Under the pieces are notes generated by a model. The model searched no databases, was not told the DNA's origin, and was given only the letters and a program-made list of their open reading frames with translations. From sequence record MG748547: DNA of 64,000 nucleotides; one strand, 5' to 3'. The position numbers and the translations under genes were made by a program. This DNA is from Escherichia phage EP75. Of the stretch, positions 7,864 to 51,177 are shown in pieces (position 1 is the stretch's first letter; every line of letters begins with the position of its first letter).

Positions 7864-7940
7864 AGTTCACATAGGGCGGTACACAACACCCCGCCGAATG
7901 AAAAGTGAAACGAACCAACTACATTATGAGGAATTACATC

Positions 7941-8429
7941 ATGGCTACTACCAAAACTCTGATCACCAACGGCACCATCTCTTTTGAACTGAACACTGAA
8001 GTTGCAAAAGTTGAAATGTTCCGCATCGCTCAGGCAGCTGGCTTCACTGGTGGCAAAACTTCCTTCATGAACCTGCTGAACGGCAAAGTCAAAGCGACCA
8101 ACGGCTTCACCCTGGTTGAGCAGGTTGTGGTTGACAAAGCAGTCGTCGCAAAAACCGCTGACAAAGTTGGCATGCTGAAAGGCCTGGGGCACGACATCCA
8201 CGTTGTTGAAGCTACGACCGAAACTTACGGCACCATCACTGTCGGAAAGGGGCGCATCCAGCTGAACCCGCTGAATAACGGAACCTTCTCTGTGATGGTA
8301 TTCCCGAAAAAAGGTTACGACAACAGCGATATCGTGAAAGCCGCTGGCGGTGAAGCAAAATCCCAATATGTCAAAATGGGTAAACTGAGCGCCGACGCCG
8401 TTGAAACTCTGGTAAGCAAACTGGCATAA
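7941..8429 (+). CDS. hypothetical protein, probably highly expressed
   Basis: ATG at 7941 with GAGGA RBS; codon usage (ctg, ggc, aac, ccg, cgc) is strongly biased compared with neighbouring genes. Confidence 0.5.
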   Translation: MATTKTLITNGTISFELNTEVAKVEMFRIAQAAGFTGGKTSFMNLLNGKVKATNGFTLVEQVVVDKAVVAKTADKVGMLKGLGHDIHVVEATTETYGTITVGKGRIQLNPLNNGTFSVMVFPKKGYDNSDIVKAAGGEAKSQYVKMGKLSADAVETLVSKLA

Positions 8430-8435
8430 GTCACA

Positions 8436-8461
8436 AGGGGAGGCAACTCCCCTCCTTATTC
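8436..8461 (+). terminator. intrinsic terminator
   Basis: aggggag-gcaa-ctcccct hairpin followed by ccttatt. Confidence 0.45.
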
Positions 8462-8483
8462 AGAATTTTGGTAGGAGATTATC

Positions 8484-8672
8484 ATGGGACGTCCGATTAT
8501 CCACGTTTCAGAAGGCGCGATTTGGGTTATGACCCGCATCCCTAATGTTCATTTTCCTCAGTTCCAAGAGGAAATCGAGCAAGCAATGCTAACGATCCTG
8601 GAAAAATACGGGTACGACACTGAAGTCCGTGAATCCTTCAACGAAATTATGCCTGTGGTGGTTGCGCGATGA
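8484..8672 (+). CDS. hypothetical protein
   Basis: 62-aa ORF with GGAG RBS. Confidence 0.35.
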   Translation: MGRPIIHVSEGAIWVMTRIPNVHFPQFQEEIEQAMLTILEKYGYDTEVRESFNEIMPVVVAR

Positions 8673-10868: not shown

Positions 10869-13145
10869 ATGATTAACATCATAAAGCGGGACGGATCTTC
10901 TGTCCCCTTTGACATTGAAAAACTCCACACTGTTCTTGAACGTGCCTGTGAAGGATTAGAAGGAGTTTCGGTGTCTGAGGTGGAAGCAGCATCGAAGATT
11001 CAGTTCACAGACAATATGAAAACCGAACGCATTCAGGATATTATCATCCAAGCGGCGGCTACATTGATTTCTGTAGAAAAACCCAACTACCAATATGTTG
11101 CTGCCCGCCTGAAATCGTATGACCTGCGCAAAGTCGTCTATGGGCGATACAAGCCACCTCACTTGCTTGATATATTCGCTAAAAACATCAAGCAGGGCGT
11201 TTATGATCGTGAATTCCTCGAACTCTATACGAAAGAAGAATTTGAAGAACTGAACACGGTCATCAATCACAAACGCGACAAGAATTTTACTTGGGCGGCT
11301 ATGGGCCAGCTCACGCAAAAATATCTTTTGCGCGATCGCTCAGCAGACAGCAAAGTATATTACGAAACGCCTCAAGTCATGTATATGGCGATCGCGATGG
11401 CTCTGTTCTCTGCATGGGATAAAGAAACTCGCCTGACGATGGTGAAGAAATTTTATGAATACGCCAGTACAGGTAAATTCAGTCTTCCAACACCCATCAT
11501 GTCCGGCGTTCGTACCCCAACCCGCCAATTCAGTTCTTGTGTTCTTATCAAAACCGGTGACACTTTGGACTCAATCAATGCTACAGCCAAAAGTATTGTT
11601 GATTATGTATCCAAACGCGCTGGGATCGGATTTGATGTCGGAGCAATTCGTGGCATCGGTAGCCCTATCCGAAAAGGTGAAATGGTGCACACAGGTCTGG
11701 TTCCTTTCATAAAATATCTGACTGGGGCATTAAAGTCTTGCTCTCAAGGCGGTATTCGTGGCGGATCAGCAACTTGCTATATCCCTATCTGGCATTATCA
11801 ATTTGATGATGTTGTGGTCCTGAAGAACAACCGTGGTCTTGAAGAGAACCGTGAACGCCGTATCGACTATGGTATTCAGATCAACCGCGTCATGTTCGAA
11901 CGTCTGGTGAACAAACAACCCCTGTATTTGTTCGATCCGAAAGACAACCGCGATATGTACGAAGCGTTTTTCGCAGATGTCGATAAGTTCCGTACCCTGT
12001 ACGACAACATGGTCAAAGCTGCTGATGCTGGTTTGGTTCGTGCCAAGAAGATGAATGCGGAAGAAGTATTCCAGATGTTGTTGGATCAGCGTTCAGATAC
12101 AGGCCGCATCTACATCGCGTTTGTCGACCACATGAACCAGTACAGTCCATTCAATCTAGACACAATCTATAGTTCTAATCTGTGTCTGGAGATTGCGCTT
12201 CCTACTCGTGAGTTCCAACAGTATGATGATGAAGATGGTCGCATTGCCCTGTGTACACTCGCATCATTTAACCTGACGGCGTTTGAAGATCCAACAGAAA
12301 TGGAAGATGTTGCTTTCGTTCTGGTTTCAGCTTTGGATATGTTGTTGGAATATCAGGACTACCCAGCTCGCCAAGCCCGTTTGGCTGTAGAAGAATATCG
12401 TCCTCTGGGTATCGGTATCGTCAACGTCGCGCATTTCCTGGCCAAGAACTTCACGGGTTATGGATCGCCTGTCGGATTAGAACTTCTAGACAAGTGGATG
12501 GCACATCTTCATTTCTACTTGGTCAAAGCGTCCAACCGTCTGGCCATGCGTTTCGGATCTTGTAAGAAGTCAACTATCCATGATTCTGGATTTGTGACAG
12601 CAGACCTTCAGCCTCTCCCGCTAGACATCCTACCCAATGGCAAAAAGCCTGTTGGGCAAGCCTATGGTCTTGACTGGGAAGGTCTGAAGCAGAACCTATC
12701 CGAGTATGGGATCCGTAACGCCACGTTGTTAGCCGTAGCACCAACTGAAAGCTCCTCTCAGGTGCTGAACGCAACGAACGGTATAGAACCACCAAAAGGT
12801 CTCATCAGCATCAAAGGCAGCAAGGACGGCGTCTATAAACAGATCGTTCCGGATGTAGAAACCCTTGGTCCTCTATATGACCTGAAATGGAATTTGGATT
12901 GTATTGAATACCTGAAGACGGCTGCGGTCATACAACGTTGGGTAGATCAATCTATCAGCACCAACACATGGTATGACCCAGAGAAATATCCAGAAGGCAA
13001 GATCCCGCGCTCTCTTATGATGCAGGATATTCTGTCTTTCTACATGTGGGGTGGTAAAACTCTGTATTACAACACCAACAAAGACTCCAAGGAAGACGAG
13101 GAGTTGTCTCAGGCTGTTGTTGAATGTGACACCTGTGTTGTTTGA
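10869..13145 (+). CDS. nrdA: ribonucleotide reductase class Ia large subunit
   Basis: 758 aa; N-terminal ATP-cone (IIKRDGS...FDIEKL); typical NrdA size; followed by nrdB. Confidence 0.8.
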   Translation: MINIIKRDGSSVPFDIEKLHTVLERACEGLEGVSVSEVEAASKIQFTDNMKTERIQDIIIQAAATLISVEKPNYQYVAARLKSYDLRKVVYGRYKPPHLLDIFAKNIKQGVYDREFLELYTKEEFEELNTVINHKRDKNFTWAAMGQLTQKYLLRDRSADSKVYYETPQVMYMAIAMALFSAWDKETRLTMVKKFYEYASTGKFSLPTPIMSGVRTPTRQFSSCVLIKTGDTLDSINATAKSIVDYVSKRAGIGFDVGAIRGIGSPIRKGEMVHTGLVPFIKYLTGALKSCSQGGIRGGSATCYIPIWHYQFDDVVVLKNNRGLEENRERRIDYGIQINRVMFERLVNKQPLYLFDPKDNRDMYEAFFADVDKFRTLYDNMVKAADAGLVRAKKMNAEEVFQMLLDQRSDTGRIYIAFVDHMNQYSPFNLDTIYSSNLCLEIALPTREFQQYDDEDGRIALCTLASFNLTAFEDPTEMEDVAFVLVSALDMLLEYQDYPARQARLAVEEYRPLGIGIVNVAHFLAKNFTGYGSPVGLELLDKWMAHLHFYLVKASNRLAMRFGSCKKSTIHDSGFVTADLQPLPLDILPNGKKPVGQAYGLDWEGLKQNLSEYGIRNATLLAVAPTESSSQVLNATNGIEPPKGLISIKGSKDGVYKQIVPDVETLGPLYDLKWNLDCIEYLKTAAVIQRWVDQSISTNTWYDPEKYPEGKIPRSLMMQDILSFYMWGGKTLYYNTNKDSKEDEELSQAVVECDTCVV

Positions 13146-33939: not shown

Positions 33940-35133
33940 ATGAAAGCCAAGACCTTCAGCATCCCAATTGATAACATTGGTCGTGTCAAGGAACGTCTTG
34001 CCAAACTTGAAAGAACGGCAAACCGCCTGAAACTCGAGTTCCCTCTTGTTGAGTTCAGTGAACCATACAAAACACAACACCGCTATTCTATCACTGGCGA
34101 AAAATTTTATCGTTGGTGGCAAGATTGTACTCTAACTGGTGAAGGCATCGACCGCCCCGTTTCTTATGGTGGGTGGAGTATCATTGGACAATTCAACCAC
34201 CAGTATCCAAAAGTCATTCTGAATAAACTGTCAGATGACATCCACCAAAATTTCGTTCAAAGATTTGAAGCTGAAAACGTATCTTGGTGCGAGCATTGCA
34301 ACAAATCTGTGCGTCGTCATAACACATATGTCGTTCGTAACGAACAATCTGGCGCACAGATGCTCGTGGGTAGCAGCTGTATGCATCATTATGTCCCGCA
34401 TCAGAAATCCCTTGATGCGGTTATGTCTTATTACATGTCTATTCACGAAATGTTTACCCCCGATGAAGATGACCCAGAAGGGATTTATCGGGTTAATGAA
34501 CCAGATTATGTTGACACAGAAGGATATTTGCGTAAATGCTTTCAGGTTTTGCTGTCCGGCCTGAGCATTAAAAGTGATGATTTTGGTCGAGTTCTTGGTC
34601 ATATCTCTAGCGGTACTCGTCCAGAGAAAGGTTCTGACATTGATATATTCTATAACAAGGCTGTTAAAGCCCGTGAAGATGCTCAATCAGAAATGTACCA
34701 TATGATGCTTTTCATCTCATCGTTGTCTGAAAATAACGATTTCAACGTCCGGCTGAAACGTATGTGCGAACCTGGTTATCACCTTGTTAAAGACTCAACA
34801 ACAGTTCGTTGGGGAGCAGCAAAGTATTATGATTATATCCACACCCCCCGCCAAACGCGCACTGTATCAAATTGGGTTGGTGAAGTTGGTGAAATGTTAG
34901 AAGCACAGGTCAAATTTGAAGCAAGGATTTTCCTGTATTCATCTGATTATGGTGACACGTATCTGTATACTTTCAAAACCAAGGAAGGCAATACCATTAC
35001 ATGGAAGACTTCCTATATGGAAACCGAATTCCTGGAAGGTGATATGATCATTCGTGGTCGCGTCAAAGAATTGACCGAATTCAAAGGTGTTAAACAAACT
35101 CAGATCACAAGGGCAAAACTGAGGAAATTATGA
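33940..35133 (+). CDS. hypothetical protein with Cys/His cluster
   Basis: 397 aa; WCEHCNK ... SSCMHHY suggests metal binding. Confidence 0.5.
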   Translation: MKAKTFSIPIDNIGRVKERLAKLERTANRLKLEFPLVEFSEPYKTQHRYSITGEKFYRWWQDCTLTGEGIDRPVSYGGWSIIGQFNHQYPKVILNKLSDDIHQNFVQRFEAENVSWCEHCNKSVRRHNTYVVRNEQSGAQMLVGSSCMHHYVPHQKSLDAVMSYYMSIHEMFTPDEDDPEGIYRVNEPDYVDTEGYLRKCFQVLLSGLSIKSDDFGRVLGHISSGTRPEKGSDIDIFYNKAVKAREDAQSEMYHMMLFISSLSENNDFNVRLKRMCEPGYHLVKDSTTVRWGAAKYYDYIHTPRQTRTVSNWVGEVGEMLEAQVKFEARIFLYSSDYGDTYLYTFKTKEGNTITWKTSYMETEFLEGDMIIRGRVKELTEFKGVKQTQITRAKLRKL

Positions 35134-35245
35134 TTATTTTTCAATTTGTTTTGAAAGCATTTGCATTCGGTCTTATCGCATGCGGAGTGATCACAGCTAT
35201 GCTGTTAATCATAGCCCTGATCATCCCCTTTAAGAGGAAACGCTG

Positions 35246-35853: not shown

Positions 35854-37281
35854 ATGATGCTTCCTCTTTTAGAAATAATTCAAAATCTTCGCGATACCAA
35901 AGGCACCAACGCCAAGAAAGCTGTGCTGACCGAGGCGTTCAGAACCAATCCGGAATTGGTTGATTTCCTTCAATACGTCTACGACCCGATGCGTTCTTAT
36001 TACCGCACTCAATTCAATATAAACGCATTCCCTCGCATGCTCTCGCGCGGCGTTGTTGGTAGCTGGGATCAGGTTTATGACGTTCTTGATATGATGGCCG
36101 AACGCAAGATCGGTGGGATGAAGGCAGATCAAGAACTTGCGAAGGCCGCGACCAACATCCATCCGGATTACCATACCCTGATACAAATTATACTCGACAG
36201 AGACATCAAAGCGGGAATTGCCGAGAAAGGTATAAACGCAGCATTCAACGCAGCAGGTGGTACAGGGCGTCTGATTAATATCCTTCCATATCACCGTTAT
36301 GATAACATGACGATTGACTTGCTGAAGAAGATGGACTTCAAGCGCGGCGTCTTCAGCCAGCTGAAGTCAGATGGCATGTTTGCCAACATCATCTGTCGTT
36401 ATGGAAGAGACCCAGAGATTCGTTCTCGTTCCGGTTCTCTTATTGCGGGTGGTTCCGTTGATAACCTATCATTGGTTTTCAAAGACCTGATCTACGATGC
36501 GGGGATTGGTGAAAGCGTCTTCCATGGTGAACTGCTCGTCATTGATCTGAAAACGAATACAGTGTTGCCTCGGGCTATCGGCAATGGTAAGCTCAACAGT
36601 GTTATCCAAACGGGTGAACCCCTGGAAGATCGTTACAAGGTGATCTATCGGGTATGGGACGTTGTGCCGTATGATAATTGGTTCAATGCTCAGCGTGTGG
36701 ACACCCCATATGAGCGCCGTTTTGATATCATACAACAGTTGTTCGAAGGGGATGACGGACTGGTTCAGGTTCAAGAAACCCGTGTTGTTCATTCATTTGA
36801 AGAAGCTGTCGAACACTTCAAAGACGCTTTGGCTCGTCGGGAAGAAGGCACGATTTGTAAGGCCGCAGATATGCCTTGGGAAGATGGAACATCATCTGAA
36901 GGGTTAAAGCTAAAAATGGAAGTAGAATGTGACCTTGAAATCGTTGGCTTCAACGAGGCCGATAAGAAAGGGAAGCACGCCAAGACATTTGGATCTCTCC
37001 TCTGCAAGACCTCTGATAGCCTCTTAGTTGTTGGCGTATCGGGGATCTCAGATGAGTTGAGACTACGAATGTGGGAAAACCAAGAGGACTTCATTGGTAA
37101 GATTGCCGCCGTGCTCTCTAATGGCGTACAGGATAAAACCGATGACGCCATGAAGTCTCTATTCCTTCCACGTCTCGTTGAAGTACGCACAGACAAGAAA
37201 GTCGCTAATACACTGGCTGAAGTCTATGCTATCCAGAAAGCATATATCGAAAATATTTTGGTGTTGTTGGAAGCGGCATGA
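35854..37281 (+). CDS. 30: ATP-dependent DNA ligase (T4 gene 30-like)
   Basis: Adenylation motif KSDG (QLKSDGMFANI); size 475 aa. Confidence 0.65.
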   Translation: MMLPLLEIIQNLRDTKGTNAKKAVLTEAFRTNPELVDFLQYVYDPMRSYYRTQFNINAFPRMLSRGVVGSWDQVYDVLDMMAERKIGGMKADQELAKAATNIHPDYHTLIQIILDRDIKAGIAEKGINAAFNAAGGTGRLINILPYHRYDNMTIDLLKKMDFKRGVFSQLKSDGMFANIICRYGRDPEIRSRSGSLIAGGSVDNLSLVFKDLIYDAGIGESVFHGELLVIDLKTNTVLPRAIGNGKLNSVIQTGEPLEDRYKVIYRVWDVVPYDNWFNAQRVDTPYERRFDIIQQLFEGDDGLVQVQETRVVHSFEEAVEHFKDALARREEGTICKAADMPWEDGTSSEGLKLKMEVECDLEIVGFNEADKKGKHAKTFGSLLCKTSDSLLVVGVSGISDELRLRMWENQEDFIGKIAAVLSNGVQDKTDDAMKSLFLPRLVEVRTDKKVANTLAEVYAIQKAYIENILVLLEAA

Positions 37282-37286
37282 AAATT

Positions 37287-37304
37287 GGGGTTCTTCGGAA
37301 CCCC
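37287..37304 (+). other. GC-rich stem-loop (ggggttc-ttcg-gaacccc) followed by TTCAATAA
   Basis: Perfect 7-bp stem with UUCG-type loop just after the ligase stop; no U-tract. Confidence 0.4.
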
Positions 37305-37331
37305 ATTCAATAAAGACAGTAGCAGTATAAT
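37303..37331 (+). promoter_or_regulatory. candidate promoter (TTCAATAA element, TATAAT -10)
   Basis: tataat at 37326-37331, weak -35. Confidence 0.25.
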
Positions 37332-37358
37332 TCCAAGAAATCATTACCAGGTGTTATT

Positions 37359-37622
37359 ATGAAACTTATTGATAAGAAACCAAGGAAAGACAATGATTCT
37401 CTTCACCTCATAAACATTATGAGGGAATTGGGAGTTTCTGAATTACAGATGATGAAGATGATGAATTGTTCTGACGTTGTCTATAATTGGACAAACGGTT
37501 ATCGTCTTATCCCAAAATCATTCCGTCGTTTTATTTTGGCATTGGTGTTTATTCATCGCCAAGGAAAAACAGAAGAGTTTCAACGTTTCGTTAAATCAGA
37601 GGAGAGATCACGTGGTTGGTAA
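37359..37622 (+). CDS. hypothetical protein, possible small HTH regulator
   Basis: 87 aa; LINIMRELGVSELQMMKMM segment is helix-turn-helix-like (weak). Confidence 0.35.
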   Translation: MKLIDKKPRKDNDSLHLINIMRELGVSELQMMKMMNCSDVVYNWTNGYRLIPKSFRRFILALVFIHRQGKTEEFQRFVKSEERSRGW

Positions 37623-37772
37623 AAATCCGCCGACATATGCCAAAATCGGGATCGCTTTCCGGAACGCCATGCTTTTCATTAAAGAGAAAGGCTTGGTGGC
37701 GGAGTTCAATCAGTTCTGTTCCGAACGCCGCAGATTACAGAAACAGAAACAGAAAAGCAGGGAGAAACGCCA

Positions 37773-38434
37773 TGATAACTGAGTGGGAGAAAATGCAATA
37801 TGAAAGGGCATTCAACGTTTATTGCATCTATATGGCGATCAAATTGCATTTCACCACAAAAGACTTTGATTATGGCCTGTATGGGCCGATGAACAATTAC
37901 AAGTTTGAAACGTTCTATTCTAAACAGGGCGTGGCCAAACAATTTGCTAAACTTGCTCGTCGGTTCGAATCTTCCCAAGGTGAAGTGGTGGAAAATTATA
38001 TTATTGCCAACTTTGTTAAATCACCAAAGACGTGGGTGACAACATTACTTACAAGACAGGCCCAAGAAAATTATAATGAATATCGCCGCCTGTATGACAA
38101 CTTCTCATATAATTTTCTTGAACATTTTGAGAGATATATGATCCCTGAGATAAAAGAAAGAGGCGTGAATTTTATCCAATATATCAAAGGAAATGGTAAT
38201 GGGCATCCACCTTTACTGACAGATATTATTGTTAAACGCTATCCAATTTGGTTTCTCGTTGGATTGAATAAAGTAGTGGGGTTCATCCATTTATATGATA
38301 CAATACTCAAGGATGACATCTATTGGAACTCTGAGTCTTTTTTATTAAAGAAAACCAATTCAGTTGTTCCTGATGAAAACACAGAATACACAAAAGGAAA
38401 ACTCCGTGAGCTAATCCTTGCCCACGGAATTTGA
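37773..38434 (+). CDS. possible helicase loader (T4 gp59-like)
   Basis: 220 aa from ATG 37773 (GGGAG RBS); YCIYMAIKLHF...DFDYGLY is reminiscent of the gp59 N-terminus as recalled; low certainty. Confidence 0.35.
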
Positions 38435-46198: not shown

Positions 46199-46225
46199 AA
46201 TTAAGGGGAAGTATACCTTCCCCTT
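46199..46225 (-). terminator. intrinsic terminator (minus strand)
   Basis: aaggggaag-tatac-cttcccctt hairpin; T-rich tail on the minus strand. Confidence 0.45.
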
Positions 46226-46244: not shown

Positions 46245-46595
46245 TTATTCAGTACATGCTTTACCGAGGTCTGTAAGCCTATAGAATGTTACTTCAGACT
46301 TCGGCCAATGCTTATACTCTTCAGAGTTGTCATGAACCATTGTAAACGCAGGTTCTATCAGACCTTTAGACAACAAGGATTGACCTGAACGCGTATCCCA
46401 TGGATCACCCTTTACAGAACGAAACCCGCCAGATATCGGTGGCGCATGAAAAGTCCAAACCGTTTTCCCTTTATCGTTCGTCCAAGATTTGGGATTGAAA
46501 TACCAATGACAAAGGCGTCTGGCTTCACCTTTTTCAAAATTCAACATTCCTAAAAGGACGCAGAGTTGATGTCCTGTGATTCTTGGCTTTTTCAT
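46245..46595 (-). CDS. hypothetical protein
   Basis: 116-aa ORF. Confidence 0.45.
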   Translation of the reverse strand: MKKPRITGHQLCVLLGMLNFEKGEARRLCHWYFNPKSWTNDKGKTVWTFHAPPISGGFRSVKGDPWDTRSGQSLLSKGLIEPAFTMVHDNSEEYKHWPKSEVTFYRLTDLGKACTE

Positions 46596-46963
46596 AATAT
46601 ATCTCTCTTCTTCAACATGCGTTCCACCTCTGGCCAGTTCACGCAGGGGCGATTGGAAACTTCATCCCATACCAGAGGGCAGCCAAGAGCGGCGTCGTCG
46701 ATGTAAACCTGGGCATATGCCTTTGGAGACTCCGTCCAAGTCTTCTGTGATGGGTTTGTATTAACTCCATACAGAGGGATGCCACGGACATGGAACCAGG
46801 TTTTCGCTTGCTCCAATTCCGCACCAGAACGCATCGTGAACAAAATCAGCTGATGCCCTTTGGCAACGAGCCTCTTCAGGCAGGCATCAGCACCGATGTC
46901 CCGCCCGACCTTTGGGTATTCGTGGGTCACACAAGTCCCGTCAAAATCCACTGCAATGATCAT
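46592..46963 (-). CDS. HAD-superfamily phosphatase (small)
   Basis: N-terminal IIAVDFDGT (DxDGT nucleophile motif); 123 aa. Confidence 0.5.
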   Translation of the reverse strand: MIIAVDFDGTCVTHEYPKVGRDIGADACLKRLVAKGHQLILFTMRSGAELEQAKTWFHVRGIPLYGVNTNPSQKTWTESPKAYAQVYIDDAALGCPLVWDEVSNRPCVNWPEVERMLKKRDIL

Positions 46964-47292
46964 AAGATCCCCAAGTCAGTAAGGTAACGATAAAACAAGA
47001 TTATAGACAGAAATCCAATTAACACCCAAGACGACAGGATGGGCTTGCAATTTAGCGTAGTCTTTCCATTGGGTATGTTGGGACTTCCAGTAATAACAAC
47101 CGAATCCGTTTTAGCTCTCAGCGTCATGACAGAACCCATGAGGATGATTGGGCGCACATAATGCCCTTCATGATTGCGCTTCACGATACATGGTGAAGAA
47201 AATCGCAGGAACGGATCACCGCTTTTATAACCAAATAACTCGACCTTTTGTATTTCTTCGGGTACTTTCTGACCAGGAAAGAATATTTTCAT
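46960..47292 (-). CDS. hypothetical protein
   Basis: 110-aa ORF, ATGA overlaps on both sides. Confidence 0.4.
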
Positions 47293-47867
47293 AGCACAAT
47301 TCCTAAATTTGTGTATAACAACTCAGCCAGGGTTACAGGACGCTTGAATTGTTCCCAACTGCAGTTCAGGTATTCGCGCTCTTCGCGAATATTTTCGTGA
47401 AGATGACCATGGATATTATACGCCCAACGGTCTAATTGATAAGGAACATGTGTTGTCAACACACGGCCAACAGGCGTGTCACGTTCATACATAGCGCCGA
47501 AGGAGCTAATCCAGCCGTCCAGATACAGAGACAACAACATCTTAAAGCTGTCATGGTTGCCTTGTGCCACCCTGATGATAAAGTTCGGACGCCAGTCATC
47601 GGGAACGGGGCGGCGTTTGAACTCATCAATGTTTCGCTTGGCACCCTCTCGCATCAGGCGAATGAACCCTTCAGCCCCGATGAAGCATATATCACCAGCC
47701 AGTTCAAGAACGTCCCGAGACTTCAACCCCTGAAAGATACTGTCAATGACCGCAGCGTCATGGGCTTCCTGTGTATCAAATCCACGCGGTTTAAAGACCT
47801 TCTTATGCCCAAGATGAGTGTCACCAAGGTGCTTTACAATTCCCGCCATTATGGTTTCCTCAGCCAT
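47289..47867 (-). CDS. calcineurin-like metallophosphoesterase
   Basis: GDTHLG, GDICF, GNHD, GHLH motifs; start may be the ATG at 47849. Confidence 0.6.
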
Positions 47868-48190
47868 TCTAAAATCGGCACTTTCACAAACCCTTTATGC
47901 CAACGATGCGGTTTGTGACCTCTATTATATTCGAGCAAACACGTGTCTGGTGGGACACTGAAGTGGATGCCTTCGATGTCGTAGTAATGTCCGTCAATCA
48001 GAGTATACACATGACCTTCGATCTGGCTGTAATGGATCTCTGCTTGAGGATACACATGCTTCAGAACCAGAGCAACCTGATAGCACTTTCCGTTCTTCCC
48101 AACATACTCAACATCCACCTGTTGTGGGAAGACGTCTTTGATAAGATTTATCAATCTCGTGATGTCATTTACAACAACTGAACGTTTCAT
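47849..48190 (-). CDS. hypothetical protein
   Basis: 113-aa ORF. Confidence 0.4.
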
Positions 48191-48192
48191 CT

Positions 48193-48855
48193 CTATGATA
48201 ACTCATGGCGATGTCGAACACACGCAGGACAATCACAATTCTTTTTCAAAATTGGCAATTCACACCATGTCATTAAGTCATGTATTGGGGACATGTGATG
48301 ATAGAACCAAGATTTCTTGAGACTAATCAATGGATATAAAATTTCAATAGATCTTTCCCCGTCTCTGGTCATCATGTTGTATCCTTCAATAACTTTATTA
48401 AAGGCGGGTATCCAGTGTATTGCGTCATCGCCGTTAACATATGCCAAGATATACGTGGAAGGCAAGCCACTGCCTTTAAATTGCGTGTTTAATAACCATA
48501 TCGGGGCTTGTGCTAAACAAGCGCGAAAACCACCGTTCGGGACGTTGATGCTACTGATAGGTTCTTGATGATGTGTCCAACGATACATGAGAAGTGGGGC
48601 ATTTTTATTAATCCAGTTGTATATTTTATTCCTCGCCCAATTTTCGCGTTTAGATTTAAATTTATTATTTTCGAGGTGGCAATACACAGTATGAACTGAA
48701 TATCCTTTCGATAGCAACCAAATCAACATGTATGTGCTATCCACCCCACCAGACCAGAACAACGTCACTTCTTGATTATTCTGCGGCAATGGAGCATCCC
48801 CTTGAAGAACACGGTATACAAAATCACAATCAGATATTGAGACAACAATTTCCAT
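48193..48855 (-). CDS. PP-loop ATP pyrophosphatase, QueC-like
   Basis: N-terminal SGGVDST (SGGxDS); C-terminal cysteine cluster C-x8-C-x-C-PAC resembling the QueC zinc site. Confidence 0.5.
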   Translation of the reverse strand: MEIVVSISDCDFVYRVLQGDAPLPQNNQEVTLFWSGGVDSTYMLIWLLSKGYSVHTVYCHLENNKFKSKRENWARNKIYNWINKNAPLLMYRWTHHQEPISSINVPNGGFRACLAQAPIWLLNTQFKGSGLPSTYILAYVNGDDAIHWIPAFNKVIEGYNMMTRDGERSIEILYPLISLKKSWFYHHMSPIHDLMTWCELPILKKNCDCPACVRHRHELS

Positions 48856-49151
48856 TAAAATATTCCTCTTAAAGAATCATTTATCCTGCGCAATTCGTTT
48901 TCCACTTTTATCTTCATATTTTTATCGTCGTTCACGAAAATCATTTTATCTAAATCTTCGCCATTAATCTTTGTATAAAAATAAATGTCATGCTCAAAGA
49001 AAATCGTTTTTCCAACAGAACGCATGGCAAAGAACGTTGCAATAGTTCTTGGTAAAGGTTTGAATTTAATGGCATTGAAACGCAAAGCCTGATAGAGAGG
49101 TTTTAATGTTCCTAAGCGAATACAATGCTGGATAATTTCTTGCTCTTTCAT
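48855..49151 (-). CDS. hypothetical protein
   Basis: 98-aa ORF. Confidence 0.4.
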   Translation of the reverse strand: MKEQEIIQHCIRLGTLKPLYQALRFNAIKFKPLPRTIATFFAMRSVGKTIFFEHDIYFYTKINGEDLDKMIFVNDDKNMKIKVENELRRINDSLRGIF

Positions 49152-49194
49152 TTGTTGTGCGCCATAAAGATATGATGGTACAATGATAATACAT

Positions 49195-49226
49195 TATACA
49201 AATAGAAAAGCCCCTTTCGGGGCTTA
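49195..49226 (-). terminator. intrinsic terminator (minus strand)
   Basis: aagcccc-tttc-ggggctt hairpin with T-rich tail on the minus strand. Confidence 0.45.
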
Positions 49227-49514
49227 TTTGTCTTCAGATTCGTATAAACGCCAATTGCCGATGCTAAACCACTCCCCCACATTATTTGAATATCTGGTTG
49301 TTCGGACTCCTCCGACTTCATACGCCCATTTGAAGAATTTCCATTTGGACGATAAAGAAGGACATTCGCTTCCGGATTTCAAAGAACACGCTGTGAGCCA
49401 ACGCGTAATACTGAGAGCCTGAAAAATCGGATGGATAAATGAAGAATACAATATCCAAAGCGTTATGGCAACAAAAACAATGGTCGTGATCACCCCGACA
49501 ATTTGAAAGAACAT
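49224..49514 (-). CDS. small membrane protein (putative)
   Basis: 96 aa with N-terminal hydrophobic helix; frame choice uncertain. Confidence 0.3.
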   Translation of the reverse strand: MFFQIVGVITTIVFVAITLWILYSSFIHPIFQALSITRWLTACSLKSGSECPSLSSKWKFFKWAYEVGGVRTTRYSNNVGEWFSIGNWRLYESEDK

Positions 49515-49590
49515 TTAAGAACCTCCAAAATATTGAACACAGACTATGAAGAAAACTATGATTGTAAACAACCATGAAACAAGGAAAGAT

Positions 49591-50223
49591 TCATCCTTCC
49601 ACCTTCAGCCCCATCAGGTCTTCCATGGTTTTCTGAATGCGTAGCCAGTCAAGCGCCGCATCATAACGAGGGTCATGATAGATCATACCTTCCAGTTCCC
49701 ACGCCTTGATACCAGCATATCGATCCTGCTGCCCAATACCCTTCAGCCAGCTTACGATGTCAAATGTGTGGTGATAGTCCCAAGGTTCGTTGGAATCTTG
49801 CTTACACGTCACCTCAATGATGTGCTGAGCCTTGCGTAGGTCAAACAGATTCCTATCACACCAGTCAACCGATCGCGGGTCGATCCCAAGGCGATGGCAT
49901 CCCTTGCGAATTTCATCGGCCAATTTGAAAATAGAAATATCCTTGTCGGTCGGATATAGACTGATAGCTCGGGCGGCGTCGCACGGGTTGCGTTTACCTG
50001 TACCCAGCCACCATTCCACAGTGCCCTGGTCTTTCACACGGCCAAGTTCAATCTGTTCTTTGACATCCAGTTTGATAAATGTCGTGCGCTCTACAACAAG
50101 CTGCTGAAGAGTATAACGCTTGGTCAGGTCGGCGATAGTCTGTGCCCAAGACAACATGACAGCATCATCCCAACGACCGAGAGTTTCGCTATCAGCGACG
50201 GCCAAGAAATTAGATTTATACAT
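49591..50223 (-). CDS. DEDDh 3'-5' exonuclease (DnaQ/DexA-like)
   Basis: Exo I motif AVADSETLG (D-x-E) and exo III motif YHDPRYDA. Confidence 0.55.
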   Translation of the reverse strand: MYKSNFLAVADSETLGRWDDAVMLSWAQTIADLTKRYTLQQLVVERTTFIKLDVKEQIELGRVKDQGTVEWWLGTGKRNPCDAARAISLYPTDKDISIFKLADEIRKGCHRLGIDPRSVDWCDRNLFDLRKAQHIIEVTCKQDSNEPWDYHHTFDIVSWLKGIGQQDRYAGIKAWELEGMIYHDPRYDAALDWLRIQKTMEDLMGLKVEG

Positions 50224-50560
50224 CAGTTTCCCCTGCTTTCTCTAAAAGGAGTTTCAAAGGATATGTCCCACAAGCGGTGGCATACTCGACTTTGAAATAT
50301 GAATTATCGTTCATGGCGAAATTGCGATGTGGGAAATATTCCCCGTCATCCAACCCGCCTAATCCCCCGCCGACGCGATATTGTTTTAACTCGACTTCGC
50401 CGCCATAACGGAGTTGGGCATATAGGCCGATAGGAGCGCGAACGTAATGCTCCAGCCATACCCAATTTCCATCGTGTAAACGTGTAGGGATAAATGCAAA
50501 ACGCACCTTGGGATGAAGAACGGCTTTGGCGAGCATCTCTTCTGTTATTTCACGCTTCAT
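50216..50560 (-). CDS. hypothetical protein
   Basis: 114-aa ORF. Confidence 0.4.
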   Translation of the reverse strand: MKREITEEMLAKAVLHPKVRFAFIPTRLHDGNWVWLEHYVRAPIGLYAQLRYGGEVELKQYRVGGGLGGLDDGEYFPHRNFAMNDNSYFKVEYATACGTYPLKLLLEKAGETDV

Positions 50561-51177
50561 CCAATACCTTCCTCTTCGATGATATCTTCTTCACTAGCGA
50601 CGACAGAGATTCCGTAGTCTACCATCTGGGAAAGTTCTTGTAAATCTTGTTCAAACCCGTCACCCTGTCGGATATAAAAGACGGGTACGACACGACGCCT
50701 GGTATCTTCGAAGATAGTCTCCGCGATTTTATTAATCTGACTCACCACGTGAAACAGTTTTAATCCACCGATGCCACAGCCGATGGCGGGTAAACCAACA
50801 TAGACTGTTTCGTCAGTTTTTGCCTCAATGATATCGTGAACTTGTTCAAACATAATCTGAACTGAACTGATAATGGAAGGCATGCGTGCGTTAGGACCAG
50901 GGTAGAACTGAGTATACAAATTGAATCCCCAGACACCAGTGTCATGATCAAACGCATAGGACATGTTCCCCAAACGTTGTTCCGGACCACGTTCATCTAA
51001 TTGGTCGGCTCGGTAAATTTCTGGGAAATCTAATCGAACATGGTTGGCGATACCTGCGCCCATCACAGACCAACAATTTGCTCCATGAGCGAAAGCATTG
51101 ATGAGATTAAAACTCGTAGCGGCTTTCAGTAAATCGCCGTTTGTGATAACATATGTGGTCATGCGTAACGTCTCCAT
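50557..51177 (-). CDS. macro-domain protein (ADP-ribose binding/hydrolase-like)
   Basis: INAFAHGANCWSVMGAGIA and GLPAIGCGIGGL resemble the two glycine-rich loops of macro domains. Confidence 0.5.
   Translation of the reverse strand: METLRMTTYVITNGDLLKAATSFNLINAFAHGANCWSVMGAGIANHVRLDFPEIYRADQLDERGPEQRLGNMSYAFDHDTGVWGFNLYTQFYPGPNARMPSIISSVQIMFEQVHDIIEAKTDETVYVGLPAIGCGIGGLKLFHVVSQINKIAETIFEDTRRRVVPVFYIRQGDGFEQDLQELSQMVDYGISVVASEEDIIEEEGIG

Follow-up and report, generated by a model that had tools for sequence, protein, structure and literature searches.

A QueC-like gene of Escherichia phage EP75 represents a phage-borne protein family predicted to be paralogous to QueC

The enzymes that invite comparison with the protein considered here are QueC and three further PP-loop enzymes, Cap9, QatC and YcfA. 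The 64,000-nucleotide stretch of Escherichia phage EP75 analysed here (sequence record MG748547; hereafter the window) carries on its minus strand a gene with ATG start (48193-48855) encoding a protein of 220 residues. It is publicly annotated as "QueC-like" due to its match to PHROG 1550 (E-value 9e-82), which bears the label "QueC-like queuosine biosynthesis". An initial annotation of the window likewise described the product as an orphan QueC-like PP-loop ATPase, possibly connected to 7-deazaguanine modification of DNA.

QueC (PF06508 cluster 1; TIGR00364; PDB 3BL5 and 2PG3), the synthase of 7-cyano-7-deazaguanine (preQ0), which it forms from 7-carboxy-7-deazaguanine (CDG) using 2 ATP and ammonia, shares with the EP75 family a length of approximately 220 residues, a single PP-loop Rossmann domain, the SGGxDS loop, a glutamate after strand 2, the motif P-L-x4-K and a module of four cysteines (Cys4). 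The canonical QueC signature has been defined, with Y35, R99, Y131 and Y189 as essential residues, and the Y131F variant of the E. coli enzyme retains partial activity (Libby et al. 2026, PMC13329287). In contrast to QueC, the EP75 family lacks Y35/Q37/H39, R99-N100, the P-D-C residues and Y189, shows no linkage to queD or queE and, apart from the few cellular loci described below, belongs to viruses only.

Cap9 (PDB 9NTO, chain B) is a protein-deazaguanylating QueC homologue of the type IV cyclic oligonucleotide-based anti-phage signalling system (CBASS). In its crystal structure the deazaguanine is stacked between the tyrosine of a YxDC motif and the arginine of an RN motif, and is hydrogen-bonded to the aspartate of YxDC. 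QatC represents another branch of the QueC superfamily which, like the EP75 family, has a remodelled pocket and retains the SGGxDS and zinc motifs. However, QatC differs in its length of about 400 residues with N- and C-terminal extensions, in its motifs D..R..WxR, RxRxxxF, HP and TK, and in its zinc motif C-x19-CGxC. YcfA of Erwinia amylovora, which we take to be an enzyme of the 6-thioguanine pathway activating a guanine-nucleotide carbonyl, is also a stand-alone PP-loop enzyme of approximately 220 residues. However, YcfA (PDB 9KQ6, with GTP and ATP) shares only 11% identity with the EP75 protein, and its sulfur-donor partner has no counterpart in EP75.

The family itself was known before: it came to notice in 2019 and has the catalogue entry PHROG 1550. 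The groups pVOG VOG5614 and PHROG 1550 and the "singleton QueC-like" protein of Escherichia phage ECML-4, which is 91% identical to the EP75 protein, represent the same protein family. Hutinet et al. (2019) stated in a single sentence that the ECML-4 protein probably belongs to another subfamily of N-type ATP pyrophosphatases and not to QueC. Apart from this remark our literature search returned annotation mentions only and no functional study of the family.

We presume that the EP75 protein is a functional zinc-containing PP-loop ATP pyrophosphatase of a QueC-paralogous phage clade, which would act as an adenylate-forming amidoligase on a probably nucleobase-like substrate; we assign this reading a probability of about 0.6. 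A role in nucleotide or nucleic-acid metabolism is most likely, because two phosphatase-type genes are found in the same gene block, genes for a dCMP deaminase and DexA are located near by, and replication, recombination and nucleotide modules surround the family members of distant phages.

As the initial annotation had stated, the translated protein contains the PP-loop SGGVDS towards its N-terminus (residues 35-40; 48736-48753, minus strand), the motif binding the alpha- and beta-phosphates of ATP, and a C-terminal cluster C198-x8-C207-x-C209-x2-C212 (48220-48264, minus strand). The cluster ends in "CPAC", with W197 preceding and E199 following its first cysteine. The AlphaFold2 model (predicted local distance difference test score 84, predicted template modelling score 0.85) shows a five-stranded Rossmann-like domain and a C-terminal cysteine-rich lid, and the margins in the structural comparison were too small to deduce a substrate. 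Combining the SGGxDS/T loop with a Rossmann-like alpha/beta fold, the protein is a member of the PP-loop ATP pyrophosphatase superfamily. The Cys4 cluster presumably forms a structural zinc site homologous to the motif C-x8-C-x2-C-x2-C of QueC.

The gene is real and conserved, and it is probably expressed. In the sequence TAATG the stop codon of the upstream gene, which encodes a 98-residue protein, and the start codon overlap, and the Shine-Dalgarno sequence AAGAGGA (48864-48870, minus strand) precedes the ATG at a distance of 8 nt. A tblastn search with the protein returned matches in 198 phage records, approximately 165 of which show an intact frame with 91-100% conservation. Furthermore, one peptide of the protein has been detected in the proteomics of the related phage Sajous1.

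Neither the PP-loop nor any of the four cysteines varies among 19 homologues with identities of 53-98%. An alignment of 50 more distant relatives (25-39% identity to the query) revealed G37, D39, S40, E71, Y139, D143, K181, C198, C209 and C212 to be invariant and S35 (48/50), G36 (49/50) and C207 (46/50) to be nearly so. Together with the match to PHROG 1550 and the 198 phage records, this conservation lies far outside the expectation for a chance resemblance. Position 148 is occupied by Y, F or W in 48 of these sequences (Trp in EP75), position 151 by D or E in 45 (Ala in EP75), and the residue after the first zinc cysteine is Glu in 49. The resulting family signature comprises W-SGG-x-DST, [IL]-x-N-N-x2-K-x2-R-E and Q-x-P-x-W in the N-terminal half, Y-V-M-N-D-D-A-I-S-[YFW]-[LI]-x-[DE] in the centre, and F-P-L-x4-K followed by [WFY]-C-E-x(~7)-C-G-x-C-x-P-C-[KR]-R towards the C-terminus. 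In EP75 the central motif reads Y139-V-N-G-D143-D144-A-I-H-W148 (48412-48441, minus strand), as located by the MAFFT alignment with QueC. No recognisable added domain was detected in ten long family members (299-435 residues), whose tails are unconserved.

That the gene is a decaying or non-catalytic remnant could be suspected from its absence in Klebsiella phage May, where synteny is otherwise intact, and from the loss of one zinc-motif residue and of the acid at position 151 in the Kuttervirus clade. However, the intact frame in so many phage records, the strict conservation of the PP-loop, E71, Y139, D143, K181, C198, C209 and C212 in more than 50 divergent sequences (C207 in 46 of 50), the good Shine-Dalgarno sequence with translational coupling and the peptide of phage Sajous1 make such a remnant extremely improbable.

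Scans with the single EP75 sequence against Pfam, NCBIfam, PADLOC and the PDB recognised the PP-loop only and did not achieve a classification. The Pfam model PF06508 (QueC) matched residues 33-64 with 23.7 bits at a gathering score of 22, the ThiI and tRNA_Me_trans (MnmA-type) models scored just behind, the only PADLOC match was the "QueC" model over the PP-loop, and all matches in the PDB sequence search had E-values above 0.03.

The analysis of the family was more informative. PF06508 was the best Pfam family for each of the 50 relatives, different members matching N-terminal, middle or C-terminal parts of the model and some long members matching model positions 112-208. A best match to a PP-loop family other than QueC, which the initial annotation had named as evidence against a QueC assignment, was thus not obtained. 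According to hhalign the family segment "FPLxKxxK...TWCE...CGxCxPC" aligns to QueC residues 150-208 with a probability of 94% (E-value 1e-7). The QueC side of this comparison consisted of three sequences, PDB 2PG3, PDB 3BL5 and a manually entered E. coli QueC, which matched 2PG3, the QueC chain of Erwinia/Pectobacterium, with 436 bits. Together these results show the family to be homologous to QueC at both ends, and it is assigned to the QueC superfamily.

Within this superfamily the family separates clearly from QueC. The family hidden Markov model (HMM) gave 73-232 bits for members taken from independent viral contigs versus 30-34 bits for true QueCs, and the EP75 protein reached 17.8 bits with the QueC equivalog model TIGR00364, the cut-off of which is 150.3 bits.

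The residue correspondences were taken from a MAFFT alignment of the family with QueC and from column counts over the 50 relatives. QueC residues E42 and K165 correspond to E71 and K181 of the family (50/50 each), and Y131 corresponds to the aromatic residue at position 148. On the other hand, Y35 is replaced by I or L, Q37 by N (N63 in EP75) followed by an insertion of three to four residues, N100 by Pro and Y189 by Glu (49/50, as in Cap9), R99 is lost in a variable column, and the P-D-C part of YPDC is unconserved, the EP75 protein having W148-I-P-A151. Accordingly, of the QueC motif YxQxHxxE only the Glu (E71) is kept, VPxRN aligns with L-A-Q-A-P with Q116 being conserved instead, and of YPDC only the aromatic residue remains, the acid found at position 151 in the family having been lost in EP75. 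The zinc motif reads C-x8-C-x1-C-x2-C with Glu in place of Tyr after the first cysteine; in most of the wider family the spacing is the canonical CGxCxxC, and the Kuttervirus clade has lost one residue of it. These correspondences indicate that the ATP-binding and structural elements have been kept while about half of the substrate pocket has been replaced.

Two contigs of uncultured phages carry both proteins. L016 (423-1220 and 8004-8759) and L029 (1428-2231 and 7998-8708) each encode a canonical QueC and a family member approximately 6.5 kb apart. Both canonical QueCs contain YGQKH, VPNRN, YPDC and C-Y and scored 152 and 156 bits with TIGR00364, above its cut-off, serving as positive control, whereas the family member gave no match at E≤0.001 on L029 and 27 bits on L016. 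The occurrence of both on the same contig argues that the two proteins are not interchangeable. On each contig the two genes flank a cassette for a single-stranded DNA-binding protein (SSB), RecA, an exonuclease and DnaB. Furthermore, a third contig encodes three divergent paralogues with PP-loop and cysteine cluster within 5 kb (L052:7163-7879, 7876-8499 and 11639-12346) which reach only 44-60 bits with the family HMM and may represent another branch of the QueC superfamily.

Based on these comparisons the family is assigned to a QueC paralogue and not to a QueC orthologue. The suggestion of the initial annotation that the gene could encode a different PP-loop enzyme agrees with a separate, phage-restricted clade with remodelled pocket; however, the protein still belongs to the QueC superfamily.

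The window represents a ViI-like Kuttervirus, as judged from the region 47000-50500, which shares 99.8% identity with Salmonella phages S115, aagejoakim and rabagast and at least 95% with approximately 130 further ViI-like phages (Kuttervirus, Ackermannviridae). Due to the identity of 99.8% the annotation of aagejoakim (NC_049503.1) could be transferred onto the window. As already noted in the initial annotation, no partner resembling FolE, QueD, QueE or DpdA is located near by: the ten neighbouring proteins scanned gave no match to a 7-deazaguanine family, nor to DpdA or the transglycosylase TGT. The supposition that such partners lie outside the window did not hold either, as FolE, QueD, QueE, QueF, DpdA/TGT and Gat are all missing from the annotation of the complete genome of this 99.8% identical relative. 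When manually entered sequences of FolE, QueD and QueE from E. coli were compared by tblastn with the window and the relative's genome, no match was significant (best E-values 0.22-0.61). Neither a linkage to queD, queE or folE nor a Dpd-type transglycosylase was thus detected.

The virion DNA of phages ViI, CBA6 and CBA120 and of Vibrio phage 1.255.O, which also encodes a family member, was shown by liquid chromatography-mass spectrometry (LC-MS) to contain dA, dG, dC, dT and only 5-(2-aminoethoxy)methyl-2'-deoxyuridine (5-NeOmdU) in addition (PMC5889632). The published reconstitution of 5-NeOmdU synthesis required only the 5-hmdU DNA kinases gp67/gp243, the transferase (aGPT-PPlase) gp247 (plus gp160) and the PLP decarboxylase gp226, gp160 being a glycosylase-fold paralogue and not the QueC-like protein. 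A role of the QueC-like protein in 5-NeOmdU synthesis was considered and rejected since the pathway was reconstituted without it and phage May lacks the gene.

The substrate is presumably not CDG, since the base-binding residues of QueC and Cap9 have been replaced and since the phage lacks the means to make the base or to insert it into DNA. A 7-deazaguanine modification of DNA is thus almost certainly not made by the QueC-like gene. The same failed TIGR00364 match, the replacement of Y35, R99, Y189 and the base-holding residues of Cap9, the missing DpdA/TGT and the presence of only 5-NeOmdU in ViI-like DNA also speak against the partial pathway relying on host precursors that the initial annotation had proposed.

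A true but divergent preQ0 synthase could still act on CDG of the host, raising preQ0 or queuosine in tRNA or feeding a low-level DNA modification via a host or unrecognised transglycosylase. The hosts, Salmonella and E. coli, make CDG, QueC is the best Pfam family, if just above the gathering score, the Cys4 module, Lys181 (K165) and Glu71 (E42) are conserved, and an aromatic residue occupies the position of Y131, where the Phe variant of QueC is partly active. However, TIGR00364 was missed by more than 130 bits, three residues each essential in E. coli QueC (Y35, R99 and Y189) are replaced, and the gene would be redundant as the host already has QueC. Taking furthermore into account that no DpdA/TGT, FolE, QueD or QueE is annotated in the relative, that no 7-deazaguanine peak was found in ViI-like DNA, that L016 and L029 keep a canonical QueC beside the family member and that Hutinet et al. 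set the ECML-4 protein apart from QueC, we consider a preQ0 synthase very unlikely.

The EP75 family resembles Cap9 in its minimal size, in the "C-E" dipeptide at the first zinc cysteine (versus "C-Y" in QueC), in P-[LF]-x4-K and presumably in catalysing one amide-forming step. Accordingly, a Cap9- or QatC-like enzyme might ligate a nucleobase carboxylate N-terminally to a protein of the phage or of the host, or might serve as counter-defence by diverting CDG from type IV CBASS and Qat; dispensability and variable presence, as often seen for anti-defence genes, would suit the latter. However, of the Cap9 features (F/YxQx5E, RN, Hx4YxDC, CEx6CxxCxxC and adjacency to CD-NTase and Cap10) only "CE", PLx4K and Cys4 are shared. 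Cap9 keeps its deazaguanine pocket (F/YxQ, RN, YxDC), while the EP75 family has replaced it: the residues holding the deazaguanine, R86 of RN and Y115/D117 of YxDC, are unconserved (W-I-P-A in EP75). Cap9 is moreover bacterial and always encoded beside CD-NTase and Cap10, whereas the EP75 gene is viral and has neither CD-NTase, Cap10/TGT, QatA, QatB nor QatD as partner, and no neighbouring gene product starts with Met-Gly. With respect to QatC, the NCBIfam matches listed up to an E-value of 10 do not include its model NF041925, the protein has only 220 residues and qatA, qatB and qatD were not found among its neighbours. Since the family is very broad and resides in replication modules of large phages, a metabolic role fits better than a narrow anti-defence role, and a Cap9- or QatC-like function seems rather unlikely.

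A base modifier of the ThiI, TtuA or TilS type would adenylate the carbonyl of a pyrimidine or purine in tRNA or DNA and exchange it for sulfur or an amine, and the cysteines might in this case hold an Fe-S cluster. The Pfam scores of ThiI and tRNA_Me_trans just behind QueC are consistent with such an enzyme, and the motif Y-V-x-N-D-D-A presumably resembles the H-x-D-D motif of TilS and TtcA. However, the protein of about 200 residues has no THUMP, PUA or other RNA-binding domain, its Cys4 module is homologous to the structural zinc site of QueC and not to the three-cysteine Fe-S site of TtuA and LarE, and no nucleoside beyond 5-NeOmdU was seen in ViI-like DNA. A linkage to tRNA was also looked for and rejected, as there are no tRNA genes within the window. 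It seems therefore unlikely that the EP75 protein is a base modifier of this type.

A profile built from 19 close homologues matched 1,141 proteins at E≤1e-3 and 475 proteins at E≤1e-10 among 1.84 billion cluster representatives; the best 150 matches are essentially full-length and mostly 180-300 residues long. In the IMG/VR database 56 viral loci were found, 13 of them Ackermannviridae-like and 43 distant, the latter often located on contigs of 100-360 kb. Searched with the same patterns, the genomes of 185,579 bacterial and archaeal species (one genome each) yielded no more than three weak loci. The family consequently is a large and distinct clade of at least 1,141 sequence clusters, almost exclusively phage-borne.

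Cultured carriers in the Ackermannviridae include Kuttervirus, Taipeivirus, Campanilevirus and relatives infecting Shigella, Serratia, Enterobacter, Erwinia and Yersinia. Further members were detected in ViI-like Vibrio phages and in jumbo phages, among them Ralstonia RSF1, Burkholderia FLC9 and SURPRISE13, Pseudomonas HPP-Temi and Noxifer, and Erwinia pEa_SNUABM_54.

The sole substantial cellular copy found (L058:7896-8582) is encoded on a 4.2-Mb bacterial chromosome from a metagenome (OW818669.1). Its location between insertion sequence (IS) transposase genes and beside genes for WD40 and CHASE2 proteins is suggestive of a stray horizontal transfer. Cellular homologues were also considered as a clue to function; of the three weak loci the one examined, flanked by IS transposases, was uninformative.

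The presumed reaction of the EP75 protein would comprise three steps. Based on the fold and the motif, the SGGVDS loop would bind ATP-Mg. In a second step the enzyme may adenylate a small and planar substrate, probably resembling a nucleobase, at a carboxylate or a carbonyl oxygen, as proposed from the chemistry common to PP-loop enzymes and the aromatic residue at the position of QueC Y131. Finally, an amine would displace AMP to form an amide or amidine in a single ligation, as indicated by the Glu that replaces the QueC Tyr after the first zinc cysteine, as in the amide-forming Cap9.

Several points weigh against this proposal. We infer every step following the binding of ATP. A deazapurine-like ligand is possible, because the aromatic residue at the Y131 position and, in most members, an acid near the D133 position survive. 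Bulk-nucleoside high-performance liquid chromatography or LC-MS would miss a modification at well under 1% of the bases. The neighbourhood signal is furthermore soft, since replication genes abound in large phages, many loci are closely related to each other and a conserved partner is missing.

It is conceivable, though on balance doubtful, that the family catalyses a reaction new for phages. Using ATP, it would amidate or ligate a nucleobase or nucleotide, or would join a nucleobase-type acid to the N-terminus of a protein, in genome replication or defence evasion. If so, the QueC scaffold would have been repurposed independently for a third time, following QatC and Cap9, and now by viruses. 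As the QatC and Cap9 branches perform new protein-nucleobase conjugation, new nucleotide or conjugation chemistry may reasonably be sought in the viral branch.

Clustering of the open reading frames at the 56 viral loci revealed no universally adjacent partner gene and only an enrichment of genes of replication and nucleotide metabolism. Among the 43 distant loci an SNF2 helicase is encoded in 15, often directly adjacent, RecA/UvsX in ten, Nudix in seven, and a family-B DNA polymerase (directly adjacent) and SbcCD in six each; further neighbours are DnaB, a gp32-like SSB, UvsY, an exonuclease and dCMP deaminase. Cultured phages show comparable surroundings, gp46/47-type nuclease genes being located near the family member in Vibrio phage YC, and genes for a dCTP deaminase, DprA, a ligase and a helicase near the copy in phage HPP-Temi. 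Inteins with a Hint domain plus a Hom_end or LAGLIDADG domain interrupt two of the SNF2-family helicase genes adjoining family members (L018:6442-8475 and L040:5169-7988).

The dispensability of the QueC-like gene may be deduced from Klebsiella phage May (Taipeivirus; L064, MG428991.1 144277-152903), which keeps the gene order from DexA to dCMP deaminase including the phosphoesterase and HAD-like genes and lacks the QueC-like gene. Moreover, among the Klebsiella-phage records searched by tblastn DexA was detected in 45 and the QueC-like protein in only seven. The description of the locus as accessory is supported by this absence at the syntenic site, while the wide distribution of the gene in the Ackermannviridae does not agree with it.

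The analysis adds to the previous knowledge the scale and viral restriction of the family, its failure as QueC at the level of motifs, the coexistence with true QueC, the context of replication modules and the presumed dispensability. Hundreds of phage genomes, among them therapeutic-candidate Kuttervirus and several jumbo phages, carry the label "QueC-like queuosine biosynthesis" or "7-cyano-7-deazaguanine synthase". Such labels invite the false inference of 7-deazaguanine-modified DNA, and recognition of a separate virus-restricted branch corrects the annotation; the name "queuosine biosynthesis" for PHROG 1550 is not supported by the evidence presented here. BFVD and GenBank records give the name "7-cyano-7-deazaguanine synthase" to the members of Pseudomonas phage Noxifer, Ralstonia phage RSF1 and Vibrio phage GR28A, probably a misannotation according to the motif comparison. 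The family marks a large conserved group of enzymes within the replication and nucleotide-metabolism modules of phages. As the QueC-like gene is small and presumably dispensable, and its host is genetically tractable, its function is directly testable.

In EP75 the QueC-like gene is the second of seven close-packed, co-directional genes (46245-49151, minus strand) with overlapping or abutting start and stop codons. The gene spacing and the flanking hairpins suggest that the block forms one transcription unit. The first gene encodes the 98-residue protein mentioned above (PHROG 9302, function not assigned). Downstream of the QueC-like gene follow, all on the minus strand, genes for a YunG-like protein (47849-48190), a phosphoesterase (47289-47867), a DUF7618 protein (46960-47292) and a small HAD-like protein with DFDGT motif (46592-46963, PHROG 1238), and finally the gene for a 116-residue protein (PHROG 4677), the last of the block.

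The HAD-like protein of PHROG 1238 could be a pathway partner of the QueC-like family, since it adjoins family members in three unrelated lineages, Kuttervirus, contig L016 (7629-8000) and Ralstonia phage RSF1 (L066:2436-2921). As a conserved partner it was, however, rejected because it does so in these three lineages only and because the HAD-like gene persists in phage May without the QueC-like gene. PHROG 1238 carries the label "phosphoheptose isomerase", which looks like a mislabel.

The block is separated from the DexA block by a perfect GC-rich hairpin (AAGCCCC-GAAA-GGGGCTT, 49208-49225) with T-runs on both strands, which is predicted to be a bidirectional terminator-like element. Phages Marshall and May have an annotated terminator at the corresponding position. 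A TATAAT sequence lies immediately downstream of the EP75 hairpin on the minus strand. A scan for sigma-70 promoters returned 19 candidates versus 15.7 expected from shuffling, a number not above chance. A second terminator-like hairpin with a 9-bp stem closes the seven-gene block (46203-46225, minus strand).

According to the annotation of the relative, genes for DexA, a Tk.4-like protein, topoisomerase II and rIIA/B are located on the upstream side of the block and a dCMP deaminase gene just past its downstream end. The 206-residue protein annotated as Tk.4 (50557-51177, minus strand) falls into PHROG 335 "phosphatase" and gave no Pfam match; its sequence (...NCWSVMGAGIA...) appears macro-domain-like by eye. 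Furthermore, the RefSeq genome of the relative contains two "DNA ligase" coding sequences of 113 and 474 residues with three small genes between them, corresponding approximately to window positions 34801-35142 and 36603-38027 (L001 7802-8143 and 9604-11028), which could represent a split, duplicated or mis-named ligase.

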